Source: a virus
Virus genome (UHGV): UHGV-1374842
Reading direction: 5' to 3' (one strand)
DNA: 62,663 nt
Shown here piece after piece: positions 32,779 through 32,870 of this stretch. The position numbers and the translations under genes were made by a program. How positions within the stretch are numbered: the first letter of the stretch is position 1; each line of letters opens with the position of its first letter. The notes beneath the pieces are model-generated. The model searched no databases, had not been told where the DNA came from, and saw nothing but the letters and a program-made list of their open reading frames with translations.

Positions 32779-32870
32779 CGGGCGCTTTGGCCAGCGGAGA
32801 AGGACTCGAACCTTCACGATATTATACCGGCCTCCCATCCTATCGGCATAATATGGTGCTACCGTTACAC
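32779..32870 (-). ncRNA. non-canonical tRNA-like gene with encoded 3' CCA
   Basis: On the minus strand it has a 7-bp acceptor stem (CAGCGGA/TCCGCTG), U8, a canonical D arm (GUGU-AACGGUA-GCAC), a T arm (GAAGG-UUCGAGU-CCUUC), discriminator G and CCA. The anticodon region is replaced by an extended 11-bp hairpin, and no 5-bp/7-nt anticodon arm could be folded. Confidence 0.5.

Follow-up and report, generated by a model that had tools for sequence, protein, structure and literature searches.

A phage tRNA-like RNA gene with an extended hairpin in place of the anticodon arm

We analyzed a stretch of viral DNA of 62,663 nt (UHGV virus genome UHGV-1374842, one strand read 5′ to 3′), hereafter called the window. 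On its minus strand, at 32788..32879, lies a gene of 92 nt for a transfer RNA (tRNA)-like RNA that carries an extended hairpin where the anticodon arm would be. An initial annotation made from the sequence alone had proposed this core reading, which is correct and is strengthened by the comparative data presented here. The structure of the element is conserved through compensatory changes, no variant contains an anticodon loop, the tRNA body points to descent from a tRNA-Gln gene, and the element occupies a position within an operon of early phage genes. We tentatively read it as a tRNA mimic that does not decode.

Structure of the element

Read on the minus strand, the element has the layout CAGCGGA-TA-GTGT-AACGGTA-GCAC-C-[36 nt]-CGT-GAAGG-TTCGAGT-CCTTC-TCCGCTG-G-CCA, with C1 at position 32879 and the terminal A of CCA at 32788. 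The 5′ strand of the acceptor stem, CAGCGGA (32873..32879), pairs perfectly with 32792-32798, and the 3′ portion of the element (32788..32798) consists of the acceptor strand TCCGCTG, the discriminator G (G73, at 32791) and an encoded CCA (32788-32790). The D arm, GTGT-AACGGTA-GCAC (32856..32870), is typical of viral tRNA-Gln; its stem has 4 bp, and its 7-nt loop contains GG, with A14, G18 and G19 in place. The T arm, GAAGG-TTCGAGT-CCTTC (32799..32815), has a 5-bp stem and the loop TTCGAGT, and both this loop and the G53:C61 pair are canonical. The variable region is 3 nt long (CGU, 32816..32818; CGU or AGU in relatives), and its U can form an A15:U48 Levitt pair. All nucleotides engaged in tertiary interactions (U8, A14, G18G19, T54-Psi55-C56 and G53:C61) were read directly and are intact, so that the 7-bp acceptor stem, the D and T arms and the tertiary nucleotides of the cloverleaf described by the Rfam tRNA family RF00005 are all present. 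The perfect acceptor stem with C1:G72, U8, the canonical D and T arms, G73 and the encoded CCA had all been listed in the initial annotation. Its interval for the element, 32779-32870, was 9 nt off toward the 3′ side; the element itself is real, but that interval loses 9 nt of the 5′ acceptor strand and gains 9 nt of 3′ flank. The gene call of ARAGORN has exactly the coordinates 32788..32879 on the minus strand.

In a local scan, the Rfam tRNA model RF00005 matched the element at 39.5 bits against a threshold of 29, with 28 nt of the anticodon arm taken as an insertion. A scan of the whole window at gathering thresholds missed the element owing to speed filters, and the local scan recovered it. 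Our own covariance model, R1, scores it at 116 bits. The minimum free energy fold is a cloverleaf at -30.1 kcal/mol. Folding-energy z-scores were modest (-1.4 to -2.8), as is usual for tRNAs; since they are unremarkable, the case for the element rests on the model score and the comparative data. ARAGORN found no transfer-messenger RNA (tmRNA). A protein-coding gene was considered and rejected, because relatives do not keep the overlapping open reading frames (ORFs) of either strand intact.

The central 36 nt (32819..32854) form an 11-bp helix, ATATTATGCCG/CGGTATAATAT, around a 14-nt loop, AUAGGAUGGGAGGC, in the window allele; the 5′ arm occupies 32844-32854, the loop 32830-32843 and the 3′ arm 32819-32829. 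This is the 11-bp hairpin with a 14-nt loop that had been predicted in place of the anticodon arm, and it is seen in the minimum-energy fold. The helix of the arm is 11 bp long in the window allele, whereas most relatives have 13 bp; in isolation the arm folds at -10.1 to -13.4 kcal/mol. Among all 10 distinct sequences of the element the arm is either 11-13 bp long with a 10-14 nt loop or 6 bp long with a 3-nt loop, and a 5-bp anticodon stem with a 7-nt loop carrying U33 and a purine at 37 is absent from every one of them. The hairpin loop is not conserved, being AGGAUGGGAG, AUAUGCUGAAA or CUC according to the variant, and bears no resemblance to an anticodon loop. With the anticodon arm rebuilt as a long hairpin or a triloop stub, codons cannot be read.

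ARAGORN does call the gene, as tRNA-Ala(UGC), but only by means of a forced fold. In that fold the 7-nt loop UAUGCCG is closed by a stem with an A.G mismatch, position 33 is A and not U, position 37 is C and not a purine, and a poorly paired variable arm of 23 nt is required. When the ARAGORN stem was enforced, the best energy was -19.3 kcal/mol, 10.8 kcal/mol worse than the -30.1 kcal/mol of the best fold. The statement that the element lacks a canonical anticodon arm therefore stands, whereas the stronger one that none can be drawn at any offset does not, given that ARAGORN draws a 7-nt loop in a poorer fold. The set of synthetase identity elements is likewise unstable: the discriminator may be G or U, there is variation at pairs 2:71 and 3:70, and both G3:U70 and an anticodon are missing.

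Relatives, covariation and descent

We found 30 copies of the element on 30 contigs of one narrow phage clade, comprising the 10 distinct sequences. All of the closest relatives, in which the DUF2303 protein is identical or is 96%, 89% or 86% identical, carry it. At 80 IMG/VR loci with a DUF2303 protein of 53-76% identity, no tRNA was detected by ARAGORN, BLAST or covariance model. A scan of JGI metagenomes gave one true copy (L315) and one chance match, exact-pattern scans of IMG/VR (T arm plus acceptor; D arm plus stem base) returned no family member, and BLAST against phage GenBank gave only weak matches resembling tRNA-Trp.

The copies fall into four types. Type A comprises the window and its nearest relatives, with the acceptor stem of the window and a long hairpin. 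Type B (e.g. L081, L359 and L361) has A3:U70 in the acceptor stem and a long hairpin with two A-to-G changes in its 3′ arm. In type C (L309-311) the acceptor has G2.U71, and the hairpin is a 13-bp stem of different sequence with the loop AUAUGCUGAAA. Type D (L312-313 and L351-358) has G2:C71 and a 6-bp stem, ATATCG/CGATAT, closed by the triloop CUC. The acceptor stem and CCA are present in types A-C; type D has CAA in place of CCA, so that no CCA is encoded. Scores with the Rfam tRNA model range from 37.5 to 44.7 bits over all variants (37.5 for C and 44.7 for D, against the same threshold of 29), and the anticodon arm is aberrant in each. ARAGORN calls type C 'tRNA-Asp' (GUC) and does not call type D. 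The discriminator (window position 32791) is G or T among near-identical contigs, at the same position in L081-L090, and in both A and B backgrounds.

The hairpin is exchanged as a cassette between contigs that are otherwise near-identical: the flanks agree at ~98-100%, but most of the inner stem and loop differs. The hairpins of types A/B and C differ at 6 of 26 stem positions and at most loop positions, and they share geometry and stability (13 bp, a loop of 10-11 nt and -12.5 to -13.4 kcal/mol); an alternative short fold of type C reaches only -3.1 kcal/mol. Type D also lacks an insert of ~80 nt upstream of the element, which in types A-C separates the DUF2303 gene from the element and carries a terminator and a GC hairpin (window 32884-32960 compared with L312 3245-3312), and has a different GC hairpin 5 nt upstream of the tRNA-like gene. 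Since the insert is missing where the arm is short, the long hairpin and the upstream terminator co-occur. The genes that follow the element differ among carriers, which places it in a variable slot, and it is accessory in character.

In the 30-sequence alignment of these 10 distinct sequences, all 260 of 260 pair cells held standard pairs, and no helix-breaking substitution occurred in the 27 pairs. Both partners were changed in five pairs, of which two (2:71 and 3:70) belong to the acceptor stem and three to the long hairpin. Pair 2:71 occurs as A:U, G.U or G:C, and pair 3:70 as G:C or A:U. One pair of the long helix is U-A in type A, then U.G in type B, then C-G in a subtype of B and in type C. 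Elsewhere, pair 13:22 of the D stem changes from U.G to U-A in L361, and pair 50:64 of the T stem is A:U or G.U. The G.U intermediates are consistent only with an RNA made from the minus strand. None of 500 shuffles reached the observed covariation score, and when pairing partners were slid by 1-3 columns as a control, pairing fell to 34-64%. A first alignment, not fitted to the model, gave a similar picture. It is the covariation across 10 distinct homologues that sets the element apart from chance, and on these sequence comparisons the helices are kept by selection through compensatory change.

Judged from its sequence, the element descends from a phage tRNA-Gln(UUG) gene. The D arm TAGTGTAAYGGTAGCAC has 119 matches in IMG/VR, 83 of which are tRNA-Gln, and among normal tRNAs that share its T-arm and acceptor sequence every one of the best scorers is a tRNA-Gln(UUG), e.g. 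L344. The acceptor, D-arm and T-arm sequences match those of phage tRNA-Gln(UUG) genes such as IMG/VR L344 (TGGCGGATAGTTCAATGGTAGAAC...GGGTTCGAATCCTTCTCCGCCAGCCA) and L329, G73 and CCA are common to both, and the element scores above the Rfam threshold for tRNA. It differs from them in having C1:G72 where tRNA-Gln has U1:A72, in the lack of a 7-nt anticodon loop in any variant, in its 3-nt variable region and in its polymorphic discriminator.

A 17-nt core of the hairpin gave 34 exact matches in the genomes of 185,579 species, where we estimate ~70 chance matches for a random 17-mer; only exact matches were counted, so that a diverged mimic of a CRISPR repeat would escape. None of the matches has tRNA-like flanks and none is repeated within its locus. 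It follows that the hairpin does not exactly copy a host repeat, a CRISPR repeat or a tRNA-like sequence of the host.

Genomic setting and expression

The window is the genome of a temperate gut phage, encoding a portal, a large terminase, a capsid-like protein, a tyrosine integrase and a helix-turn-helix (HTH) repressor. Domain scans placed the integrase, with its Phage_int_SAM_5 domain, at 37631-38848 on the minus strand and the HTH repressor at 35838-36251 on the plus strand. The host is probably a member of the Bacteroidota, as suggested by a distant nucleotide match to Bacteroides phage LoVEphage, the Phage_int_SAM_5 integrase domain and a Bacteroides-type -7 box. The element belongs to the leftward early operon and is 4.8 kb away from the integrase. 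Its neighbors are a DUF2303-like gene (33027-33770) on one side and a small DnaJ-type zinc-finger ORF (32198-32464) on the other. Further along the operon are RecT, a PD-(D/E)XK exonuclease, NinB, an SNF2 helicase and replication genes. Scans of ~45 neighboring proteins with Pfam and PHROG revealed no tRNA-related enzyme. The protein of 88 amino acids encoded directly downstream of the element (32198-32464, minus strand) has the DnaJ-type zinc-finger motifs CPHCHGEG and CPMCSGSG, and a form of 73 amino acids occurs in some relatives. Elsewhere in the window, the structural region of this ~62-kb phage contains a single ORF of 4399 amino acids (41241-54440, plus strand).

The -7 box, TACCTTTG at 35763-35756 on the minus strand, precedes the first early-left gene and is the only such box nearby. 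It sits between that gene and the divergent repressor gene, an arrangement that fits a lambda-like immunity switch. No Bacteroides-type -7 box lies ahead of the element, which has no evident promoter of its own. A match to a sigma-70-type promoter downstream (32766-32737) was not relied on because Bacteroidota use another consensus. An intrinsic terminator follows the DUF2303-like gene (32919..32955, minus strand; stem 32955-32938, then a T run). Nearer to the element is a GC hairpin, AGGGGG-CTGCCT-CCCCCT (32884..32901, minus strand), which ends 4 nt before C1 and is conserved in types A-C. The proposal that terminator-like hairpins on both sides make the element an independent transcription unit thus found no support: only the upstream terminator is close, the next terminator-like site downstream (32516-32495) is ~270 nt away, and there is no -7 box. 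Given the arrangement of these signals, it is more likely that transcripts from the early promoter extend into the element through read-through or antitermination.

Directly after the tRNA-like gene comes a conserved, structured non-coding stretch of ~290 nt (32495..32787, minus strand), which ends in the terminator-like hairpin at 32516-32495 and adjoins the element in every variant. RNAalifold predicted hairpins in it with a few compensatory pairs, and no conserved ORF was found on either strand. Within it are the hairpin CAGGTGT-GAAA-ACACCTG, the sequence CGCA-GTGA-TGCG in two copies and a stem of 8-9 bp, GCTCCTGA/TCAGGAGC, in which L312 shows a compensatory pair; an Rfam match resembling FopS at 32607-32663 is weak, scoring 19 bits where the threshold is 56. 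The stretch may be a small RNA or a leader, and its link to the tRNA-like element is putative.

Possible functions and known counterparts

We tentatively favor, as possible rather than probable, the reading that the element is a non-decoding tRNA mimic derived from tRNA-Gln(UUG), acting in trans as a decoy or sponge for a factor that recognizes tRNA shape or the CCA end. The element would be transcribed within the leftward early operon from the promoter region near 35760, in a transcript extending via the DUF2303-like gene to RecT, exonuclease, NinB and helicase. Its intact acceptor/T-arm helix and the elbow formed by the D and T loops would make the transcript a substrate for the host enzymes of tRNA maturation. 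Ribonuclease P (RNase P) would cut at C1, and maturation of the 3′ end would proceed by trimming to the encoded CCA or by CCA addition, giving a stable RNA of ~92 nt. A 13-bp helix with a 10-14 nt loop, or the 6-bp triloop stem of the sister lineage, would allow neither codon pairing nor normal seating in the ribosome. The RNA would instead mimic the upper half of a tRNA in trans and bind or soak up a factor of the host or of a rival phage, for which a tRNA-directed defense nuclease, a toxin and a modifying enzyme are candidates. A role in trans is favored because the long helix is maintained although RNase P has no need of an anticodon arm, and because the slot is variable, as accessory and counter-defense loci tend to be. 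A mimic or decoy had been among the roles suggested in the initial annotation and is viable; anticodon nucleases, which it had named as an example, are unsupported as the target, since the loop is unconserved and does not mimic an anticodon loop.

Several points weigh against this reading. The G/U variation of the discriminator and the loss of CCA in type D weaken models that need a precise acceptor end, and no sequence-specific ligand is evident because the hairpin loop is unconserved. Recognition by RNase P alone could explain the conservation of the upper half. The terminator just upstream in types A-C means that expression would need read-through or antitermination. As to the covariation, the alignment was fitted to the model, and the narrow clade, with one true copy in the JGI scan, implies few independent events.

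The main rival is that the element acts in cis as a processing signal, in the manner of tRNA punctuation, and we regard this too as possible, ranking it second. The fold would recruit RNase P and 3′ processing enzymes to the early polycistronic transcript; the upstream message would then end in the GC hairpin, cleavage would set where the structured RNA or the downstream messages begin, and the excised tRNA-like RNA would be a by-product. In favor of this are the lack of a dedicated promoter and the location within the early operon. With either upstream architecture the predicted RNase P site follows the end of a GC hairpin by 4-5 nt, and the conserved structured stretch always comes after the element. 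Sequence conservation is limited to the upper half, the anticodon arm being dispensable for RNase P and free to vary. It also counts in favor of punctuation that RNase P cuts operon mRNAs and matures phage RNAs other than tRNAs (PMC11143913). Such a signal would be partly redundant in types A-C, however, where a terminator precedes the element. RNase P has no need of an anticodon arm, yet the 13-bp helix persists in two different sequences and with compensation at three pairs.

A further reading, which we consider doubtful, is that the element is a natural 'tRNA scaffold', in which the tRNA-Gln body serves only as a chassis for processing and stability and the activity resides in the exchangeable hairpin grafted onto it. 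Directed against a host defense or a competing phage, this hairpin would pass as a cassette between otherwise near-identical genomes in the course of an arms race. Engineered tRNA scaffolds, in which a hairpin is grafted in place of the anticodon stem-loop, are correctly processed and highly stable in the laboratory. Their architecture, an intact tRNA body with a hairpin on the base of the anticodon stem, is identical to that of the element, which is natural.

A functionless, decaying tRNA-Gln pseudogene, with the long hairpin as a by-product of local duplication, appears rather unlikely. The narrow distribution, the polymorphic discriminator and the loss of CCA in type D would fit such a relic, and direct repeats in type C (GTCGATAT, present twice) suggest that the insert arose by duplication. 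A relic is disfavored because of the complete absence of helix-breaking changes; moreover, five pairs have changed on both sides, including the stepwise series from U-A through U.G to C-G, and all nucleotides of the tertiary interactions are intact.

In another view, which we hold to be unlikely, the element would work in trans as an antisense or specificity RNA built on a tRNA scaffold, comparable to the RNase P-matured C4 RNA of phages P1 and P7, with the hairpin loop or arm pairing with a target RNA; differences between hairpins would then mirror different targets or immunity types. The exchange of the hairpin as a cassette between near-identical contigs agrees with this. C4-type RNAs have an acceptor-like stem and a 3′ CCA, through which RNase P would set their 5′ end (PMC11143913), and the element shares with the C4 precursor the acceptor stem and CCA (PMC11143913). 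C4 and other non-tRNA substrates of RNase P resemble the element in being small phage RNAs inside a longer transcript; cleavage of the element by RNase P is a prediction. C4 is not a full cloverleaf, however, and has defined complementary targets, whereas for the loop of the element the window contains no complementary site on a sense strand, the best matches having 2-3 mismatches in 14 nt and being antisense to local genes. Type D offers only a triloop, and the two arms of the hairpin co-vary, which indicates a helix and not a single-stranded guide.

That the element is a real decoding tRNA, its extra nucleotides being a spliced intron or the long variable arm of the tRNA-Ala(UGC) fold, is very improbable. 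The ARAGORN calls of tRNA-Ala and, for type C, tRNA-Asp speak for it, and an alignment can be made in which 22 extra nt lie 3′ of a vestigial 15-nt arm. Against it stand the energy cost of the ARAGORN fold and its lack of U33 and a purine at 37, the variation of the called anticodon (UGC or GUC), the failure of type D to be called, and missing identity elements (G3:U70 for Ala; U1:A72 and the anticodon for Gln). The intron-bearing tRNA that had been listed as a candidate was rejected on several grounds. The helix is perfect and free of bulges, so that no bulge-helix-bulge motif is present; an insert of 22-28 nt falls far short of a group I intron; and no intron family was reported by Rfam for the element. 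No excision leaves an anticodon common to the variants, the surroundings of the putative loop being AUGCCGA, CGUGUCG or CUC, and type D has no insert, only its 6-bp stem and triloop. Least credible of all is a remnant of an attP site in a tRNA gene, the integration-site pseudogene of the initial annotation: the phage is temperate, with an integrase and a repressor, but the element is a complete cloverleaf and not a 3′ fragment, sits in the early operon at a distance of 4.8 kb from the integrase, keeps its helices by compensatory change and has a hairpin core with no true match in the 185,579 species' genomes.

Non-decoding tRNA look-alikes are already known, among them the tRNA-like domain of tmRNA, viral tRNA-like RNAs and phage RNAs matured by RNase P. 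Like the element, the tmRNA domain has the acceptor/T-arm upper half and a long helix in place of the anticodon arm. The element differs in lacking G3:U70 (its 3:70 pair is G:C or A:U), an mRNA-like part and pseudoknots, and in having a full D stem. The viral tRNA-like RNAs (vtRNAs) of murine gammaherpesvirus 68 are non-decoding, are joined to precursor microRNA hairpins and are matured by host tRNA enzymes. In both cases a viral tRNA look-alike that does not decode has a structured RNA directly downstream. The vtRNAs belong to a eukaryotic virus, with RNA polymerase III promoters and tRNase Z cleavage, and have no sequence relationship to the element. Our literature searches found no description of the element; the form that we did not find described, as read from its sequence, is a complete phage tRNA-Gln body in which the anticodon arm is a co-varying 13-bp hairpin or a triloop stub.

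Other unusual tRNA-shaped elements were encountered in viral sequences. In L271 (~5403-5500, plus strand), L264 (~7353-7443, plus strand) and L263 a long irregular hairpin stands in place of the anticodon arm; the element of L271 is solitary and is not called by ARAGORN. IMG/VR loci L251, L265, L270, L289, L302 and others combine a Gln-type D arm with a UCA (opal-suppressor-like) anticodon in the loop CTTCAAA, and their long variable arm has a loop, TCTCCAAAA, that resembles a second, Trp-type anticodon loop. Further suppressor-like tRNAs with a Gln-type D arm and a long variable arm are found in IMG/VR L116, L207 and L258 (UUA in a 9-nt loop) and in L145, L208 and L245 (CUA).

Aberrant-arm tRNA-like elements may be more widespread in viromes than one clade. 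Because ARAGORN labels the present ones 'tRNA-Ala' or 'tRNA-Asp' and misses the short form, such elements are mis-annotated or overlooked in viromes. Phage tRNA genes are known to counter defenses that cleave tRNA, but they encode functional tRNAs. The present element has given up the anticodon function, and selection keeps the tRNA body and the long helix that replaces the arm. If the element acts in trans, it would be a natural counterpart of the laboratory tRNA scaffold and would represent an undescribed route by which a phage exploits or jams factors that recognize the shape of tRNA.

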